DNA from: Chitinophaga pinensis
Lineage (GTDB): Bacteria > Bacteroidota > Bacteroidia > UKL13-3
Reading direction: 5' to 3'
Assembly (NCBI GenBank): GCA_945870425.1
Contig: CAMBSD010000009.1
Location: 50,180 to 114,179 of the forward strand
Length of the DNA: 64,000 nucleotides
Part shown: positions 44,535-54,158 of the stretch, in pieces
Layout: every line of letters starts with the position of its first letter
Position numbering within the stretch: position 1 is the stretch's first letter
Program-made: the position numbers and the translations under genes
The notes under the pieces: generated by a model
The model's input: only the letters and a program-made list of their open reading frames with translations
What the model was told of the DNA's origin: nothing
Databases searched by the model: none

Positions 44535-44918
44535 TTATTGAATAATGTTGTACTCAATTATAGAAACAACATAACTTCGTCCTGCACCAGCCCAACCTAA
44601 ATAATCTCCGGATTGTAACCAAATTGTTTCTTTAATTACAGATAATGAAATTACATTGTTATTACCATAATTTATTTCTCTCGCAACATTGCTATAACAA
44701 GCATTATTTATTGTTAAACAACCTGATAAATTATTACTAAAATCGCGCCCTCCACTAATGCCCATAGATTCAATTTTCCATACTTTAACGCTAGGCACTG
44801 TATCGAATGTAGTAGTTGTAATACCAGTAAAAGTTCTTACCCTATTAAACTGCAAATTCCCTTGCGCATACGAAGCCATTGAAAATAATAGAATCGCAAT
44901 TGTTATTGTTTTTTTCAT
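44535..44918 (-). CDS. small secreted protein, paralog of 44930..45400
   Basis: Start set at 'MKKTITIAILLFSMASYAQGNLQFNRV'. Shares N-terminal (about 85% nt identity) and C-terminal (IIEYNII / AIEFNIV) segments with the neighbour. Confidence 0.55.
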   Translation of the reverse strand: MKKTITIAILLFSMASYAQGNLQFNRVRTFTGITTTTFDTVPSVKVWKIESMGISGGRDFSNNLSGCLTINNACYSNVAREINYGNNNVISLSVIKETIWLQSGDYLGWAGAGRSYVVSIIEYNIIQ

Positions 44919-44929
44919 ATTTTTTATAA

Positions 44930-45400
44930 TTATGGAACGATGTTGAATTCTATAGCTGAAATTAACATACCTGTGCCTTGTACAATTGAAATAACTTCTC
45001 CTGCCTTTAACCATACTGACGGTGCACCAAAACCACCCAATACTGGGGTATCCAATGTTGCTGGACATTGGCTGCACTGACCTTGAGGTGCAATAGTACT
45101 ATTATTAAGCTGGGTTAAATTATATTTTAACCCAGCTACTGAAGCAATTTCAAATGTATTGTGGGTATAATAACAATAATCACTACCCGATTGCCATATA
45201 CAATTAGTATATGGCAATTTAACTGTTAAATTATTCCCAGATCCTGTTGAAGTTATCTTCAAAACTTTCCCAGCAGGAACAGTATAAGTATCTCCGTTTT
45301 TTATATTTAAAACCTGATTAAACTGTAAATTACCTTGCGCATATGAAGCCATTGAAAACAGCAGCATTGCTATGGTTATAATTTTTTTCATGTTATTCAT
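44930..45400 (-). CDS. small secreted protein, paralog of 44535..44918
   Basis: 'MKKIITIAMLLFSMASYAQGNLQFNQV...', Cys-containing middle region. Confidence 0.55.
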   Translation of the reverse strand: MNNMKKIITIAMLLFSMASYAQGNLQFNQVLNIKNGDTYTVPAGKVLKITSTGSGNNLTVKLPYTNCIWQSGSDYCYYTHNTFEIASVAGLKYNLTQLNNSTIAPQGQCSQCPATLDTPVLGGFGAPSVWLKAGEVISIVQGTGMLISAIEFNIVP

Positions 45401-45402
45401 AA

Positions 45403-45852
45403 TTAAAATCCATCAGATAAATAAAGCATGGTATTGGCATTAGAGCCTTTGCTTGTGCCAGAAAATATGGAATAAGGAACACTCATCAATTGCTGCACAC
45501 CCATAAATGAGTAGTTGTTACCTGTAGCAGTGGTGTCTAATTCAACTTGCAAAAATTTTGAATTATTGCCCCAATTTACACCTGCCAAAGTTCCTGTAAT
45601 GGCCGTTCCCATGCCCACATTTAGGTTAAACATACCCAAGGCATTGGTGGTGGTGGTATGGGTTTCTTTAAAAGCAACCGTGCCTGTAGCCACACTATCC
45701 AAAATACTAAAGCGTACTTTAATAGCTGTATTGGTTAGTGCTTGTCCGTTGGCTTTTCTTGCAGCCGCTTGGTAAGGTATGCCAAGCGGTGCTTGGGCAT
45801 ACGTTTTTGCAAATCCTAGAATTGCAATTAATGTGTAGATTATTTTTCTCAT
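45403..45852 (-). CDS. small secreted protein, first gene of the cluster
   Basis: Signal peptide 'MRKIIYTLIAILGFAKTYAQ'. No known motif. Confidence 0.5.
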   Translation of the reverse strand: MRKIIYTLIAILGFAKTYAQAPLGIPYQAAARKANGQALTNTAIKVRFSILDSVATGTVAFKETHTTTTNALGMFNLNVGMGTAITGTLAGVNWGNNSKFLQVELDTTATGNNYSFMGVQQLMSVPYSIFSGTSKGSNANTMLYLSDGF

Positions 45853-45990
45853 TGTATTGATTTGTATAGCGTTACTGTTTTTTTTAACACCTATCCTTTA
45901 CAAAGGAAATAAAATAATCATCATTTACAAGCGATTATTTATCTTAAATTAAATAAATTTAACTTTATTATACATAATGTTATCGTAATA

Positions 45991-46362
45991 TTGCACATGC
46001 ACATAGGCTTACGTATTAAGATAGCTAGAATTAGTAAAGGATTTAAACAAGAGGATCTAGCTGAACGGATAAATAAAACCCGTCCCCTCATCTCCAGTAT
46101 TGAACAAACTGGTAAAGTTAATCATTATACCTTGAAGAAAATATGCGAGGTATTAGAAATTGATATAAACGAATTGGAAAACTCGGTGGTTTCTGAACCG
46201 TCTGCGCTGTTTTTAAGTAAGCAGCCTAACTTTAATAGTCTTAATTCCAGAATAAAGGAAATAGAGGAAGATAATAAAAACCTAAGATCGCTTATTTTGG
46301 CTCAATCAGAACTAATAAAAGACCAAAAAGATTTTATCAATAAACAAAAAAAGAATACATAA
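45991..46362 (+). CDS. XRE-family helix-turn-helix transcriptional regulator
   Basis: HTH_3-like 'IGLRIKIARISKGFKQEDLAERINKTRPLISSIEQ', coiled-coil-like tail. Divergent from the secreted-protein cluster. Confidence 0.7.
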   Translation: MHMHIGLRIKIARISKGFKQEDLAERINKTRPLISSIEQTGKVNHYTLKKICEVLEIDINELENSVVSEPSALFLSKQPNFNSLNSRIKEIEEDNKNLRSLILAQSELIKDQKDFINKQKKNT

Positions 46363-47526: not shown

Positions 47527-47598
47527 ACCGCAAATATAGGGTTGAATTTGAGAATGAGGGAATATGAAAATGTGCTTATGGGATATTCAAAACCTACA

Positions 47599-47717
47599 CA
47601 AGTGTTAAGCGAAGCGTCACTTGCAAATAGAAAGATTAAAATTTTGTAACTTTTATATAGCAATCATATCACAAAAAGGATGGCTTCATACAATAAATGT
47701 CAGGTGGAAACACGTGA
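47599..47717 (+). repeat. interspersed element, copy 1 (5'-truncated, degenerate terminal hairpin)
   Basis: At least 85% identical to 50351..50488 and 51493..51632 over the core AGTGTTAAGCGAAGCGTCACTTG...GTCAGGTGGAAACAC. Confidence 0.6.
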
Positions 47718-47757
47718 TAGAACTAGTAAAGAAAACTACTTTCAAATATCTTCGATA

Positions 47758-48309
47758 TTAGTAAATAACCTTGCAATTGCCTGCGGCTATTAAGTTACTC
47801 CAATCCGCCAACTTAATATTTTCAGTTCCACAATCAGAATAGAGGACTTCCAGCGAGTTTTCCGAAACGCCAGTTATACAGAAAACATTACCAACACCAG
47901 CAGATAAAAACATATAAACTTTTATTCCATTAAGTTCTGTAATTAACTCATGAATTATAAATTGACCAGAGGACTTTAATCGTTCAATTATAAATCTTTC
48001 AGCGTCATTCACATTAACTTTTGCAGGTTTTTCCTCATCAACTAATCGAGGTTGTTCTGCCCTTTTTTTTGTCAGGAACTGAGGTATCCCTGCTTTAATA
48101 ATAGAATCAACAAGCCTTTTATTCTCATTAGCCTGATATAAGGAATCTACAGCATAAATTGAATCCTTTAGCTTTTGTTCATTTTTCATTTTTAATTGTC
48201 TTTCATCACTACCACATCCACATAATATTAATGATAATAATAACAATTGAAAAATTGATAAAAATTTGCGATTATATTTGAAAGAATTATTTAAAAATTT
48301 AAGCCTCAT
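47758..48309 (-). CDS. lipoprotein, unknown function
   Basis: Lipobox 'LILCGCGS'. No known motif. Confidence 0.5.
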   Translation of the reverse strand: MRLKFLNNSFKYNRKFLSIFQLLLLSLILCGCGSDERQLKMKNEQKLKDSIYAVDSLYQANENKRLVDSIIKAGIPQFLTKKRAEQPRLVDEEKPAKVNVNDAERFIIERLKSSGQFIIHELITELNGIKVYMFLSAGVGNVFCITGVSENSLEVLYSDCGTENIKLADWSNLIAAGNCKVIY

Positions 48310-48506
48310 TTTCGAATAGGTGTTAAAAGTTTGAAATGCTATTATTTTCTCAACTTTGGTTAACTGGCATTTCTGGGATTTCAGTAGTGCCAGTTTTAGT
48401 AGTTACAATTGTAAAGCTAGCATTTAAATGCCTTATACCTGAGACTTCCATTATTAGAAAATAATAAAAACTAAAAAACAGTTTTATATAACAATTGTCC
48501 TGTTTT

Positions 48507-49085
48507 CTAATTTAAAAACAACCTCTCAATTAATAGGTCATAAAAGGCATATAATTCGCACCCAATTAACAAACTAAATAAACCAACACTTATTACTTCG
48601 TAGATATTATCAGAAAAAATTCCTGACCTTAAATCTCTAATTACTATTGAAGAGTAAATAAATTCAAATAGAAAATATACCCCAACAAGTATTGTTCCCC
48701 ACAATCCAAGTCCAATATGTTTACTTACTTGTTCGATATCATATTGAAAAATAAACTTATTGACTACAAAAAAAATAATTAAAAACAAGATAGTTTGTGC
48801 ATAAGAAAAATAAGCATTTTTGTTCAGAAGAGCAGAAATAATCAAATAGAATGATAATATTGGAATAAGGTACAAAACATAAACTTTATTGTAAATAATA
48901 TCGGTTTTATAATCTGCACCTATAAGTTCACCTATAAGTTGATTTGACTCATTTACAAGTGTCAAAAGATCCCATGCAGAAGCTTTAAAAATCCATGGCA
49001 AAAAGAAAAATAATAGCAATAAAAGACTTGAAATTATAACTTTTAAATTCTTAATTTGAATGTTTTGTGATTCACTATTATTCAT
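48507..49085 (-). CDS. polytopic membrane protein, unknown function
   Basis: Start set at MNNSESQ. Four or five predicted TM helices. Confidence 0.45.
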   Translation of the reverse strand: MNNSESQNIQIKNLKVIISSLLLLLFFFLPWIFKASAWDLLTLVNESNQLIGELIGADYKTDIIYNKVYVLYLIPILSFYLIISALLNKNAYFSYAQTILFLIIFFVVNKFIFQYDIEQVSKHIGLGLWGTILVGVYFLFEFIYSSIVIRDLRSGIFSDNIYEVISVGLFSLLIGCELYAFYDLLIERLFLN

Positions 49086-49176
49086 ATTTTCGTTGTTAAC
49101 TGTATTTTTAAATCTATTTATTGCTATAGTTGTAAATTTTATTTCAAAGATTATTTCATATATATATATATTGATA

Positions 49177-49749
49177 CTAAATCTCATAAATTTGGTACCT
49201 ATTTAATTTGTATATCTCATGCCCTTTTGGAAACACTATAGGTTGTGATAAAATGTTTAAGTTTTTGAATTCAAAACTCACGTTGAATAAGGGTTCAGTT
49301 CCTAAACCTGCTACAATCTGGTTAAACATCTTTACATCAGCATTTGCTGCTTTTACTTGTTTGCGCATTTGCTTAATCCAGCCCTTAGCATAAAACTGAT
49401 TTTGAATAGTATGATTTTCATCTACAAAATATTCCCATTTTTTAAGTGTAGCAATATGCAAGCGTTCTTTGGTCTGCTTATTTAGGGTATATAAAATAAG
49501 TTCTTAAGGAAAGTTTCTTAGTTTAGTACTTTTTGCAACACCTTGTAAAAAGGCATATTTCATCCCATTAATTAAAGTGGATTGATCAAACAACCATTCT
49601 TCAAAACCAAAATGGTGTTTGCCTTCAAAACAATCTGGATTACTGCTTTTACCGGCTAATCCAGTAGGCATTTTCCAATTTTTTGAATTAAACGTAAGGC
49701 GAGTATATTGCATAATAATAATAAATTTTTTGGCAATCGATAAATTCAA
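49177..49749 (-). pseudogene. hypothetical protein interrupted by in-frame TAA (49504-49506)
   Basis: Track ORFs 49504..49749 and 49177..49461 are in the same frame, separated by one TAA plus 14 sense codons. Confidence 0.45.
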
Positions 49750-49945
49750 TAAGTATTAGTTTTATAATTTTTTTTATTATTAATTAGAAAACAAATTTAA
49801 CAGGGCAATAGGTCTATTCAAATTATATTTGGTAGTTTTATTTTACTTTTAAGTATTTTATTTATACTTTTAGTTATATTTGTTTAATAAAATTAGTAAA
49901 TCAACTACCTTAAGAATTATGCATACAAAAACAAAATCAGATCAG

Positions 49946-50334
49946 ATGAAACGTTCAGAAGAACTGCGCATTGGAAAAAAATAAAACAACTGAGAGAACT
50001 AAAAAACTTTTCTCAGGAGTATATGGCTTCTCATTTAAAAATGAGTGTACCCGGATATGGTAGAATTGAAAGAAATGAGGTAGATGTTAGTATTGAGAGG
50101 GCAAATCAAATTGCAAATGTTTTAGGAATTAGTTTAACTGAATTAATCAGCTTTGACGAGAAATATATATTTAATAATTATGCTAATAACCAAAATGCTT
50201 TTGTTATTAATAGTGAATTACACCAAGTTGATAAAAAGACCTTAATAGAATTAGTTGATTACCTTAAACAACAACTACAATTAAAAGATGAGTTAATAAA
50301 AGAATTGGTACTTGGTAAAAAAAATATCAAGTAA
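49946..50334 (+). pseudogene. XRE-family HTH regulator with frameshift in A7 homopolymer
   Basis: ATG at 49946 gives 'MKRSEELRIGKK' and stops at TAA. With one extra A in the A7 run (49975-49981) it reads '...IGKKIKQLRELKNFSQEYMASHLKMSVPGYGRIERNE...', a complete HTH. The track ORF 50023..50334 lacks helix 1. Confidence 0.55.
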
Positions 50335-50350: not shown

Positions 50351-50488
50351 TTCCTCGCTTTCGCATTTGTTAAGCGAAGCGTCACTTGTAAATAGAAAGA
50401 TTAAAAGTTTGTAACTTTTATATAGCAACCATATCATATAAAGGATTGCTTCATACAATAAATGTCAGGTGGAAACACCTGACACCAC
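50351..50488 (+). repeat. interspersed element, copy 2 (full core)
   Basis: CCTCGCTTTCGCA-N-TGTTAAGCGAAGCG hairpin, AT-rich middle, GTCAGGTG-GAAA-CACCTGAC hairpin. An imperfect hairpin with T-tract follows at about 50513-50550. Confidence 0.65.
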
Positions 50489-50566
50489 TACAAAATAAAA
50501 TCAATATTTACAAAGAAGACGTCCATTTAAGACAACTTCTTTATTTGGTATAATTTATAGTTTAGT

Positions 50567-50745
50567 TTAAGAGTCTTTTGCTTTTCTTGATTTTCTATAA
50601 TATAAAATTAATGGAAGAAAACCGAAAATTATATGTAATATAGATAGCCTAAATTCATTATAAGTAAAATAGCTAAGATATACAAATCCAGCATTACCCA
50701 ATATTGTTATTATTATAACAACAATTAAATTTAGCTTCCCCATAA
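50567..50745 (-). CDS. small hydrophobic protein (59 aa, 2 TM), overlaps the upstream stop
   Basis: 'MGKLNLIVVIIITILGNAGFVYLSYFTYNEFRLSILHIIFGFLPLILYYRKSRKAKDS'. ATG overlaps the upstream ORF's last codons. Not in the ORF track (<60 aa). Coordinates approximate. Confidence 0.3.
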
Positions 50746-51348
50746 TACATAACTGAGTTGAAGTATCTGGAGTGCATTAACAAAAGACTGTTTCTCAGTT
50801 ACAGATAATTCAAATCCACTAACATTATTAATCAAAGCACCTAAATTATCTACCCATTGATCTTGATCAGCACCTTGAATACTATCAAAAGTATCTGATA
50901 CCGTTTCTGAATCTAAAGTGTTTAATGGTATGACATTTGTGGTAGCAACCATCCATTCATCAACAGTTGACATATCTTGAGCCAAAGCTGAAGCTATAAT
51001 GTCATCAAAATATGATTGAGTTATTGCTTCTAATCCAGCAGTCCAATCTGGTCTAACCTGACAAGCAATTGGAATTATAATATCATAGGTTACTGAAGTA
51101 TTTCCAGCCGCAAAAAACTGCTCACAAGTTAAATTGTGATTTATACCTGTATTATCTGTTGTGCTGGGTATTAGGTGAACTACAGGTGAATCAATACTCC
51201 ATCCATCTGATGCTTTCTTATCTGAGTAATATGCTGTTGAAGCCGCAGCTGCAATTGCAAAACTTAAAAAGCCTGTTTCAGCTGATAGTAAACCTGCTAA
51301 ATAATCGCATGATGCAATAGCGTTTTTTTGGTCTCTTGTTAATGCCAT
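50731..51348 (-). CDS. acidic hypothetical protein, no signal peptide
   Basis: 205 aa, D/E-rich C-terminal half. No known motif. Confidence 0.5.
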   Translation of the reverse strand: MALTRDQKNAIASCDYLAGLLSAETGFLSFAIAAAASTAYYSDKKASDGWSIDSPVVHLIPSTTDNTGINHNLTCEQFFAAGNTSVTYDIIIPIACQVRPDWTAGLEAITQSYFDDIIASALAQDMSTVDEWMVATTNVIPLNTLDSETVSDTFDSIQGADQDQWVDNLGALINNVSGFELSVTEKQSFVNALQILQLSYVLWGS

Positions 51349-51492
51349 AATAGTTTTTTTTAATTATTAAACGCCCTGTAAGATTAATTTAATTGCGCAC
51401 AAGGCCTGTTAAAATAACATTATTTTACAGTTATGCTTATGAGATAATAATTAATGTGATTTTATAATTTATTCCGATGCTTTCCAATGCAT

Positions 51493-51702
51493 TCCCTCGC
51501 TTTCGCAAGTGTTAAGCGAAGCGTCACTTGTGAATAGAAAGATTAAAATTTTGTAACTTTTATATACCAATCATATCATATAAAGGATGGCTTCATACAA
51601 TAAATATCAGGTGGAAACACCTGACACCACCACTAGGTGGAAACATCTGACTTCACCACTTCACCTGACTTCACCACTAAAACATCTGACATCACCACTA
51701 AC
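51493..51702 (+). repeat. interspersed element, copy 3, extended by a 12-13-nt tandem microrepeat
   Basis: Same core as copies 1 and 2. Then about five CTGAC(A/T)(C/T)CACCAC-like units (51620-51702). Track ORF 51587..51790 lies inside this element. Confidence 0.65.
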
Positions 51703-51739
51703 AAAAAAAGCCCATCGTTCAATGAACGATGGGCTTTTT
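51703..51739. terminator. bidirectional rho-independent terminator
   Basis: AAAAAAAGCCCATCGTTCA-ATGAACGATGGGCTTTTT, a 12-bp perfect stem with A and T tracts on both sides. Confidence 0.7.
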
Positions 51740-51818: not shown

Positions 51819-54071
51819 TTAGTACAACATTACTTTTTTAACGATTGATTTGTTTTCGTTTTCAACCAATACTACATAAACCCCTTTTTGGCTCATGTTT
51901 ACAGCATATGTATCGCTGCTAGTGGTACCTTCGCTTAGCACGCGGCCTAGCATATCGGTTACCGTTACTTTAGCTTTTGATGCATTGTCTAATTGCACCA
52001 CTATTTCACTAGTTTCTTGGTTAGTATAAATTCTAGCAAAATCAGTGTTCAACTCATTCACACCATTAATAATACCTGGCATATAAGTCATATTGGTAAA
52101 GTTGATACCATACACCCACAATGGATTATCAATAAATGGATTTCTGTTTTTCTGAATCGAAGAAATGTATTCATGACGCGCTATTTCTAATTCACTAGGT
52201 GGATCTTGTCGGTGCCATTTCATTAACACAGCAGTATCTTGTGCAAATTTACCACCGCTTAAGCCCCAATTTTGGCTGTAAGCACCATTGTAGCAAGTGG
52301 CCATATAAAACAAGGCACGGGCTAAATCTCCTTTGTGCTCATCGCGTGGTTCCCACACTGTTTTGTTGTTGGCATCTTTACCTAATTTTCCATATCCTGA
52401 AGGAGAAGTAGAGGTAAGGGTTACCACTTCACCAAAAGCATTGTTTGATCTAGTTAGGTTGGCATTGATTTGGTCGGTAGGAAACAAATGGTGCTGATCA
52501 TTATATTCAGGAAAATCTTTTCCATTAGGTGCTTGTGGCCACGTATTAGGATCCATATTGCTAGGCATCCAGCTTTGAGCGAATGTATGTTCTCTTGTCA
52601 ATGTTCCTGTTGAGCTTGATGCATTCCACCAAACAAATGGCTCAGAATAAACATAAGGCATATTGGTATACACGCAATACACGACTTTCTTACCACCAGT
52701 GGTATCTTTAGCCAACCAATTGTTTATTAATGTAGTGGTATAATTGCTATAAAAAATTGTATCGTGCGTATTGATTTTAGCTGAAAGCTCCGTTAAGAAA
52801 CTTGCCTTTCTTGGATCAAGACTTGCATAGTAGCTACCCGCATTTGAACCAGTAGTAGTTACAACCCCAGTCATAGGACTAGTGATTAAATAATTTTCGA
52901 AACTAGCAGGGCCATTGAAAGGAAATACAGCATAATGGTATACAGAATTAGCCAAAACATAAGTAGGTTTGAAAGTGGTATCAGCACCCACATAAGCCAC
53001 TTGCGCATCACCAATATTATCTCCTTTGCTATAGGTTTGACCATCCACGGGTACTTCATTTACAGCAGCATCATTTTTTCTTAATACCAGATACTTGTCT
53101 GACTTGTTTGCAGGTGGAAAAATATTTACAGAGTAAGTATATGCTTTAACGCCACCAAAAGTAATATTGTTTATTTTTTCGGTTGGTTCGGTAGCTAAAT
53201 TACCACCTATACCATACAACTTGAAGTTGAAAGGATTTTTTTCAGTATCTGAATTGCTAATGGCTAATGTAGCTTTTCTGGAACCTATGCTAGTGGTAGA
53301 AAAATTAACATTGAAGGTAGCTGATGAATTAGCCAATACATAAGCTGGAGCCGCACTCACAGAGAAATCAGCCGCAGCAGTGCCTGTAAAGTTCATACCG
53401 GTGATGAATAAAGTATCTAAGGTACCTTTATTCTCAATGGTAAACTGTGTGCTAGCTGTTTTTCCTATTAATGCAGTGCTACCATTTACCACATCAGCGC
53501 CTGCCAATTTCACATTGATGGTAGCCAAAGGCGATGCAGGTGCGCTAGCCAATGTAACATTATCTAAAGACACGTTTGAACCAGATTGTTTGTCAAGGTA
53601 AAAAAATCTGATATATCTGCTAGTAGATTTCGGGTTATCTGTAATGCTAGCAAATGCATTTGTTAAATCAGCTGCTGTGAAAGTGCGTAAATCAGTCCAT
53701 GTATTTCCATCTGCAGACTCTTGTGTTTTAAAAGTTCCAGCAAACGCAGGCGCTGGAGAAATACCAGTACCTTTAATATAATAACTTAAAGCACCCGGCT
53801 TATCTGTAAACCATATTTTCACATACTCACCTGTTTGGTCTAAGCGACATGCAGCATTGCCATCTTGGCCACTAGCATAGGTAAATCCTAGAACGGAGAT
53901 ATCCAACTTGGTTGACCAGCCTGTTGGGCCCGGATATTCAGGACCTGTAGGATTACTTGATGTAGACCCCGTAGGTGAAGGATTCACAAAGCTCCATGCT
54001 GTAGGCAATGTGGTTTGTGCATAGCTACTTAATGTCACAAAAATTGCCAAAATTGTAATAATTTTTTTCAT
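51819..54071 (-). CDS. secreted endonuclease I family (EndA/NucM/Vvn-like) nuclease with T9SS C-terminal sorting domain
   Basis: Signal peptide 'MKKIITILAIFVTLSSYAQ' (start set here). 'EHTFAQSW', 'DQHHLFP...N.TRSN' Endonuclease I catalytic motifs. C-terminal 'VTVTDMLGRVL...GVYVVLVENENKSIVKKVMLY'. Confidence 0.75.
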   Translation of the reverse strand: MKKIITILAIFVTLSSYAQTTLPTAWSFVNPSPTGSTSSNPTGPEYPGPTGWSTKLDISVLGFTYASGQDGNAACRLDQTGEYVKIWFTDKPGALSYYIKGTGISPAPAFAGTFKTQESADGNTWTDLRTFTAADLTNAFASITDNPKSTSRYIRFFYLDKQSGSNVSLDNVTLASAPASPLATINVKLAGADVVNGSTALIGKTASTQFTIENKGTLDTLFITGMNFTGTAAADFSVSAAPAYVLANSSATFNVNFSTTSIGSRKATLAISNSDTEKNPFNFKLYGIGGNLATEPTEKINNITFGGVKAYTYSVNIFPPANKSDKYLVLRKNDAAVNEVPVDGQTYSKGDNIGDAQVAYVGADTTFKPTYVLANSVYHYAVFPFNGPASFENYLITSPMTGVVTTTGSNAGSYYASLDPRKASFLTELSAKINTHDTIFYSNYTTTLINNWLAKDTTGGKKVVYCVYTNMPYVYSEPFVWWNASSSTGTLTREHTFAQSWMPSNMDPNTWPQAPNGKDFPEYNDQHHLFPTDQINANLTRSNNAFGEVVTLTSTSPSGYGKLGKDANNKTVWEPRDEHKGDLARALFYMATCYNGAYSQNWGLSGGKFAQDTAVLMKWHRQDPPSELEIARHEYISSIQKNRNPFIDNPLWVYGINFTNMTYMPGIINGVNELNTDFARIYTNQETSEIVVQLDNASKAKVTVTDMLGRVLSEGTTSSDTYAVNMSQKGVYVVLVENENKSIVKKVMLY

Positions 54072-54158
54072 ATGTATTTTTATTCGAACCGCAATCTTAC
54101 TAAAATAATTTGATGTATAAATTATCAAAGCATTATTTATGTTTGTTTTTACATAGTT

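Follow-up and report, generated by a model that had tools for sequence, protein, structure and literature searches.

A probable recently decayed cassette of an XRE regulator and a PUA-like, reader-like protein, with unrelated downstream genes, in a Bacteroidota genome

The joining of a PUA-superfamily sensor domain to an HNH or PD-(D/E)xK nuclease is an established architecture of modification-dependent endonucleases (PMC6765204, PMC7897488). EVE domains evolve fast and have been described from type IV restriction and toxin-antitoxin contexts, either stand-alone or together with XRE-type helix-turn-helix (HTH) and ASCH domains (PMC7641849). The locus considered here lies in a stretch of 64,000 nucleotides, hereafter the window, from a Chitinophaga pinensis assembly (GCA_945870425.1, contig CAMBSD010000009.1, positions 50,180 to 114,179), and comprises a gene for an XRE-family regulator, a divergent gene A, and genes B and C downstream of A. 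It is probably a recently decayed cassette of an XRE repressor and a divergent single-domain, reader-like protein A, with B and C as unrelated passengers.

The divergent XRE-A pair and its lesions

A divergent pair made up of a gene for a 138-aa XRE protein and a gene A of about 180 codons was found wherever enough sequence exists upstream of gene A (loci L001 to L007, L035 and L040, and the P0002 contig). The conserved unit is the XRE gene, gene A and the intergenic block between them. Its features in the window are as follows.

49177–49713, minus strand: gene A, pseudogene of 178 codons, stand-alone member of an unnamed, predicted PUA-like (YTH/EVE/ASCH-like) domain family
49504–49506, minus strand: in-frame TAA of gene A; a lysine codon AAA in L001, L005 and L035
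49919–50334, plus strand: gene of an XRE-family HTH regulator, pseudogene, with an ancestral product of 138 aa
49975–49981, plus strand: A7 homopolymer, site of a 1-nt deletion in the XRE gene; A8 in intact relatives
49840–49882, no strand assigned: conserved control block, with an XRE-side TAnnTTTG box at 49875–49882 (plus strand)
49861–49873 and 49840–49852: two TAAAAGTA repeats inside the control block, putative operators
49792–49822, minus strand: putative Bacteroidota-type promoter of gene A, with TTTG at 49819–49822 and TAAATTTG at 49792–49799, 19 nt apart

An earlier note, made from the window alone, had described a protein of about 190 aa whose two halves share one frame with a single TAA, and the translation agrees: 49749–49177 on the minus strand is 191 codons in one frame, with the TAA at 49504–49506 as the only internal stop. 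The start of gene A is probably the ATG at 49713 rather than the TTG at 49749, because the homologues begin with M(K)QYTR. In a collection of 5.8 billion proteins 16 homologues were found, 14 of them covering 92–99% of the query and two being fragments; the intact relatives, of 164–201 aa, are under purifying selection. At the position of the TAA eleven homologues have lysine and three glutamine, and one each has arginine, isoleucine or serine. When the DNA was aligned with the related loci L001, L005 and L035, CCT-AAA-GAA was found opposite the CCT-TAA-GAA of the window, and on this alignment the TAA is a real nonsense mutation of a lysine codon (AAA to TAA). The same three loci have a run of eight residues (T8/A8) in the 5' part of the XRE gene where the window has seven. 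The XRE frame, with its ancestral ATG at 49919, is shifted after codon 21 by this loss of 1 nt, and the surviving open reading frame (ORF) of 103 aa (50023–50334) starts at position 18 of the HTH_3 profile. The divergent XRE regulator reported in the note is thus present (an HTH_3/XRE protein, 205 bp from gene A measured from ATG to ATG), but its frameshift had been overlooked.

The closest intact relative is L035, which is 97.2% identical over 50491–47400 and in which the XRE, A, B and C genes are all intact; the inactivating differences between it and the window are the AAA to TAA change in A and the A8 to A7 change in the XRE gene. Three assemblies carry the two lesions together. The lesions were found at 100% regional identity in an ENA metagenome contig of 277 kb (L029, ERZ27280289) and in L030, assembled independently by Logan from run ERR5863100, and therefore both are taken to be real in that population. 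No contig with a single lesion was returned when the 81-aa and 103-aa fragments were searched for by exact match. Judged from the sequence, the XRE-A unit is non-functional in the window genome because both genes carry inactivating point mutations, and its decay is recent because both frames are otherwise undamaged, one mosaic patch excepted.

It is very unlikely that errors of sequencing or assembly produced the TAA and the A7 run, or that readthrough or slippage bypasses them so that both genes function. Homopolymer length errors are a common artefact, and the otherwise undamaged frames mean that any decay must be very recent; the identical lesions of the two assemblies above speak against error, as does the fact that an A to T change in a non-repetitive context is not typical of a platform error. 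A run of seven A residues is also short for efficient transcriptional slippage. Recoding of the TAA was rejected, since TAA is the commonest stop in the window (24 of the 34 long ORFs) and the sole tRNA there is an ordinary tRNA-Ser(TGA), and the same two facts count against readthrough. Less credible still is the idea of reversible phase variation, in which the A8/A7 tract would act as a switch of the regulator and the locus would be off rather than decaying. The lesion is indeed a one-unit change of a homopolymer within the 5' part of the gene, and the A8 tract has been kept in three diverged alleles; yet a single A7 haplotype was seen, always with the irreversible-looking TAA in A, and eight residues are at the low end for phase-variable tracts. 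The recent decay of both genes is thus retained as the preferred reading, and the annotation should replace four 'hypothetical' ORF fragments by two adjacent pseudogenes, with B and C left outside any system.

About 21 of the differences between the window and L035 are clustered in 47 bp within gene A (49372–49418), where the window resembles the distant L005 allele and L035 resembles the L001 allele. This pattern marks the patch as a short tract of gene conversion or recombination, located in the helical insert of the domain. The identity of the window with L001 falls sharply from about 49420 onward.

Further decayed copies of gene A were found in L041 (3–480), where a frameshift near residue 120 splits the gene in two, and in the Bacteroidetes metagenome-assembled genome (MAG) RE-27jun17-99 (L009, 2138–3084), where it is truncated at about residue 89 and lacks the XRE gene. 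Directly adjoining the latter copy is an ORF of 208 aa whose N-terminal motif, 'WNSNKW', is similar.

The intact XRE allele of L035 matched the PADLOC 'Control_protein' model (1.5e-12) and also PHROG repressors, and the 138-aa protein has a C-terminal coiled-coil-like tail. The regulator is far more constrained than its partner, with a ratio of nonsynonymous to synonymous substitution of about 0.05 against 0.14–0.31 for A. Five loci have an almost unchanged control block of about 45 bp (49840–49882); one of them is L040, whose gene A is 56% identical with synonymous sites near saturation. A sigma-70 scan of the window was uninformative (28 found against 25.8 expected), and therefore Bacteroidota-type TAnnTTTG boxes were searched instead. 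Such boxes flank the control block, one facing each gene; the gene A box is conserved in the window, L001, L005, L035 and L040, and it is the only exact TAnnTTTG on the minus strand between 49960 and the MscS gene. No Rfam family matched the intergenic region. The control block and the flanking boxes would form an operator and promoter region, in which the two TAAAAGTA repeats, placed between the divergent promoters, may be the binding sites of an XRE dimer that represses both A and its own gene.

Fold and family of the gene A protein

The gene A protein had no match in Pfam, PADLOC, PHROGs or NCBIfam, nor among PDB sequences, so the remark of the earlier note that it carries no recognisable motifs stands at the level of sequence. 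It does not stand at the level of the fold, where the protein appears PUA-like and its domain is a module of nuclease fusions. An AlphaFold model built with only the 14 close homologues was unusable (predicted local distance difference test, 42) and was rescued by the addition of 17 diverse stand-alone members. The predicted fold is a pseudo-barrel of the PUA-like type. The fold list of gene A includes the EVE structures THYN1 bound to 5-methylcytosine DNA (4.9) and PH1033 (4.8), an ASCH entry (4.7), McrB N-terminal domains (4.3 and 3.8), the EVE-HNH enzyme VcaM4I (3.9) and PD-T4-3 (3.6), which is specific for 5-hydroxymethylcytosine. A Foldseek search of the model against PDB and BFVD gave nothing significant, and profile searches linked the sequence to no curated family of the PUA clan (Pfam EVE, YTH, ASCH, PUA or SRA). 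The predicted fold thus resembles that of the PUA-like (YTH/EVE/ASCH) modified-base readers, and the link to the superfamily is by fold only.

In a diverse alignment of the family W13, W40, Y53, K22 and E39 are invariant, and R5, E30, E38 and R173 are conserved at 90% or more. The five invariant residues, together with the nearly invariant E38, are candidate pocket residues. The conserved charged residues would also suit a small enzyme, for example an ASCH-like hydrolase or an RNase acting on a modified nucleoside or RNA. This alternative to a reader is improbable, because in most family members the domain is joined to a dedicated nuclease or NTPase module, which is the pattern of a targeting domain; the invariant W13, W40 and Y53 are equally compatible with an aromatic binding cage. 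On the preferred reading the ligand of protein A would be either a modified nucleotide or a modified base within DNA or RNA, bound as type IV restriction enzymes bind theirs through their sensor domains, but in this subfamily with no nuclease covalently attached.

An exhaustive profile search gave 940 cluster representatives of the wider family (E<=1e-3; clusters at 50% identity), spread over Bacteroidota, Gammaproteobacteria, Myxococcota and Planctomycetota. Most of the best representatives are long: 130 of 150 exceed 250 aa and, with a single exception, these also exceed 320 aa. In the long members the domain is placed either at the N-terminus (proteins of about 320–370 aa) or at about residues 190–360 (proteins of about 530 aa). 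The C-terminal consensus of the fused members, ID.V...IFYEIKT...REALGQLLEY, is of the PD-(D/E)xK type, and the motif D-x(8-25)-hhE[h]K is present in 121 of the 130 long members. The five Pfam families most often matched by fused members, each weakly, are all nucleases: SfsA (12), PDDEXK_9 (7), HSDR_N_2 (3) and XisH (3), which are PD-(D/E)xK-type, and HNH_2 (2). Single fused members carry NOV_C (PADLOC PD-T4-1), HARE-HTH or a McrB-like AAA_5 domain (PADLOC PDC-M26A, 4e-47). One stand-alone relative lies directly after a restriction-modification system consisting of a control protein, a C5-methyltransferase and NgoPII. By analogy with described enzymes, the family has the architecture and predicted fold class known from modification-dependent restriction enzymes and their sensor domains.

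The commonest fused architecture is that of the P0020-type proteins (about 530–610 aa; for example L021 7209–9041, from Tenacibaculum adriaticum), which have an extra region of about 190–265 aa N-terminal to the reader-like domain. This region has no Pfam, NCBIfam or PADLOC match and therefore counts as another uncharacterised module. In L011, L013, L015, L016 and L017, which come from Flavobacterium and Chitinophagaceae MAGs, stand-alone family members occur in alternating arrays with secreted proteins bearing the TVTLVVSGQGKTQDEAKQNALRSAIEQA motif, a Cys-rich HNH-like protein of about 133 aa, and secreted proteins of 157 aa. One neighbour with the TVTLVVSGQGKTQDEAKQNALRSAIEQA motif was tested and gave a weak LPP20 match. 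In L016 the family member is accompanied by two adjoining ORFs with a similar N-terminal motif. Such arrays may be split reader and HNH systems.

A sizeable domain family is thus at hand that has no Pfam, NCBIfam or PADLOC model and behaves like the sensor of modification-dependent nucleases. A bolder proposal, put forward only tentatively, is that the domain of A represents a sensor family so far without a name, by which a large class of uncharacterised type-IV-like nucleases (about 900 representatives), perhaps with a new modification specificity, would be defined, and that the XRE-A pair is a new minimal conflict module with a nuclease-less reader. If this were so, the coating or sequestration of modified nucleotides or of phage DNA with modifications might be the task of the lone reader. 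Another task might be to protect modified DNA against reader-nuclease enzymes equipped with the same domain. The loss of the pair in the window would then be the record of an epigenetic conflict. The naming and testing of the family would widen the catalogue of type IV restriction specificities and might give reagents for reading DNA modifications, and the stand-alone form under repressor control leads one to ask what role a reader has without a nuclease.

Genes B and C, the repeats and the surroundings

Downstream of gene A and around the block the following features were recorded.

48507–49085, minus strand: gene B, polytopic membrane protein of 192 aa, lineage-restricted ORFan
47758–48309, minus strand: gene C, lipoprotein of 183 aa, lineage-restricted ORFan
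47588–47726, minus strand: 139-nt repeat, copy at the junction of C and the MscS gene, with a degraded 5' hairpin arm
50353–50491, minus strand: 139-nt repeat, copy just past the 3' end of the XRE gene, strongly structured, with a terminator-like first hairpin
51495–51633, minus strand: 139-nt repeat, third copy, which together with the 50353–50491 copy brackets a 1-kb insert

The membrane protein and the lipoprotein named in the earlier note were both recovered. Gene B, for which four to five transmembrane segments had been proposed, has five hydrophobic 19-mers on the Kyte-Doolittle scale; its length of 192 aa is that of its homologues, the mechanical ORF reaching to 49187. Gene C has a signal peptide and an LCGC lipobox at residues 29–32. 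Among the 5.8 billion proteins B has three homologues, with 88–98% identity in the aligned part, and for C the only homologue is a near-identical mate from its own cluster (window strain and L035). Neither B nor C matched Pfam, PADLOC, PHROG or NCBIfam models. In these library searches no housekeeping family was found for A, B or C, and among the named defence systems of PADLOC v2 there was no match for the three and only generic HTH matches for the XRE protein; the note had likewise assigned the block to no named system.

The note had further proposed that the three co-oriented genes form a module, and this did not survive the comparison of gene neighbourhoods. The order A-B-C is confined to the window strain and L035, and the three genes do not co-occur across the relatives. 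L001 and L002 are about 92% identical to the window across XRE-A and 94–96% across the MscS gene, with 49071–47729 replaced by three genes for small membrane proteins; the DNA homology with L001 stops at 49071, which is the start of B, and the second breakpoint is 47729. A is thus not part of a conserved A-B-C module, because B and C are lineage-restricted and the cargo is swapped in relatives.

In the window the XRE-A unit is flanked by the genes for Endonuclease_1 and MscS, in L005 by those for exonuclease VII and a TIG/Por_Secre_tail protein, and in L040 and the P0002 contig by toxin-antitoxin genes. The gene downstream of the pair in L005, L040, L041 and the P0002 contig encodes a secreted TIG/Por_Secre_tail protein of 700–900 aa. 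The toxin-antitoxin-rich neighbourhoods of the pair include HigB/HigA, Gp49 with HTH, Fic/Doc, Zeta toxin and MksE. A metagenome scan gave no more than 11 loci, a number too small for statistics. It may be that the cassette belongs to a fast-turnover pool of conflict or defence genes, as would be suggested by these neighbourhoods, the faster evolution of A than of its regulator, the mosaicism at 49372–49418 and the recurrent loss. In the window it would have been switched off perhaps because A is harmful once the repressor is lost, or after an epigenetic conflict, and B and C would be unrelated envelope ORFans in a recombination-prone slot between A and the 139-nt repeat, perhaps co-transcribed with A.

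That XRE, A, B and C are one functional, uncharacterised stress or defence operon, with A as the cytoplasmic sensor, B as the membrane effector and C as the lipoprotein, is unlikely. The gaps between the co-oriented genes are short (91 and 197 nt), L035 has the same A-B-C order with intact A and XRE genes, and the replacement cargo of L001 again encodes small membrane proteins. Against these stand the narrow lineage of B and C and the unrelated genes found downstream of the pair in every other context; the comparison of B with one of the three L001 cargo genes, the first (189 aa), also gave no similarity. Moreover, A and XRE are inactivated in the window while B and C are intact, which argues that B and C are independent of A.

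Several points weigh against the reading of the locus as a decayed repressor-reader cassette with passengers. No exact TAnnTTTG box is present in the A-B or B-C gaps and no scored terminator lies between the three genes, as the operon view would have it, so that co-transcription of A-B-C in this lineage, and hence some functional coupling, is possible. The repression and the operator assignment rest on conservation, and the three assemblies with the lesions may come from overlapping samples of one population. Neither gene A nor 31 diverse members of the family could be linked to Pfam EVE, YTH, ASCH or PUA even at E<=10, at which threshold the 31 members gave no coherent weak family, and searches of PDB sequences with profiles A2, A3 and A5 returned only chance-level matches (for example SAMHD1 and Brk1). 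No nuclease or other effector was found to be conserved beside the XRE-A subfamily.

The accessory character of the region, also proposed in the earlier note, was borne out by composition, by the flanking repeats and by cargo that differs between relatives of about 92–97% identity. The G+C content of the window is 35%, and the XRE-A-B-C block is a trough of 26–29% between flanks of 33–40%. The window holds exactly three copies of the 139-nt repeat (none expected by chance). The block is repeat-bounded as had been claimed, though by the first two copies in coordinate order; 'copies 1 and 3' requires another numbering, since the third copy is found 1 kb beyond these and borders a separate insert. 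Copies 2 and 3 have four hairpins, the first of which is terminator-like (GGTGTCAGGTG-TTTC-CACCTGACA with a T-rich tail); their RNA fold z-scores are −4.5 and −2.4, and that of copy 1, which has lost the 5' arm, is +0.5. DNA matching the repeat also flanks the XRE-A block in L001 and L035 (84–91% identity), and no Rfam family matched it. The repeat could be a terminator or promoter module, a miniature inverted-repeat transposable element or a recombination site.

The 1-kb insert (50492–51494) lies exactly between copies 2 and 3, where L001 and L035 have a single repeat copy. Its ORFs, of 205 aa (50731–51348) and of 58 aa and membrane-like (50567–50743), had no Pfam, PADLOC, PHROGs or NCBIfam match. 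The insert was found only in the strain carrying both lesions, and it therefore looks like a repeat-to-repeat gain or loss of a cassette.

Genes of the type IX secretion system (Por_Secre_tail), typical of Bacteroidota, are present in the window. Just after one of them, the Endonuclease_1 gene (51819–54128), there is a hairpin with a perfect 16-bp stem (51705–51739) and A and T runs on both sides, a bidirectional terminator. A second XRE gene (45991–46362, plus strand) is divergent to tandem paralogous genes for small secreted proteins of 149, 156 and 180 aa (region 44535–46362). The signal-peptide regions of these proteins constitute the direct repeat D4; copy number and sequence vary among L001, L029, L035 and L037. 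A crude regular-expression scan of the long ORFs of the window, a weak negative, gave no methyltransferase motifs.

Comparison with described systems

Modification-dependent (type IV) endonucleases such as the EVE-HNH enzyme VcaM4I/TspA15I, ScoA3IV and YenY4I (PMC6765204, PMC7897488) differ from gene A in that its domain lies outside the Pfam families EVE, SRA, YTH and PUA. Unlike the sensor-nuclease fusions, the window gene and its subfamily carry no nuclease: the products of the window gene and its 57–84% identical relatives have a single domain and no nuclease gene is conserved beside them, and it is only the distant fused relatives that have one. The YTH-like N-terminal DNA-binding domains of the archaeal McrB proteins of Thermococcus gammatolerans and Staphylothermus marinus (PDB 6p0g, 6n0s) have no sequence similarity to gene A, whose domain is stand-alone and without a McrB or McrC neighbour.

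The pair also does not have the organization of a type II toxin-antitoxin system; the genes are divergent and 205 bp apart with promoter-like boxes of their own, and A has no match to a toxin family. The circuits of control proteins of restriction-modification systems are closer in regulation, in that the best PADLOC match of the XRE protein is 'Control_protein' (1.5e-12) and a conserved, putative operator containing repeats lies beside the promoters. The regulator differs from control proteins in its 138 aa with a coiled-coil-like tail and in being divergent rather than upstream and co-oriented, and no methyltransferase or endonuclease was found in the cassette or its relatives.

The stand-alone EVE and ASCH proteins and the XRE-HTH-ASCH fusions (Bell, Wolf & Koonin 2020, PMC7641849) share further traits with the locus. 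In contrast to those fusions, the HTH and the reader are here separate divergent genes and the domain is outside the EVE and ASCH sequence families; unlike the systems of that study, XRE-A has no type I restriction-modification, GNAT or PIN partner. Like the described proteins, however, that of gene A is small, single-domain, predicted to be PUA-like, fast-evolving and associated with an XRE-type HTH, and its family is likewise found among toxin-antitoxin or restriction-modification genes.

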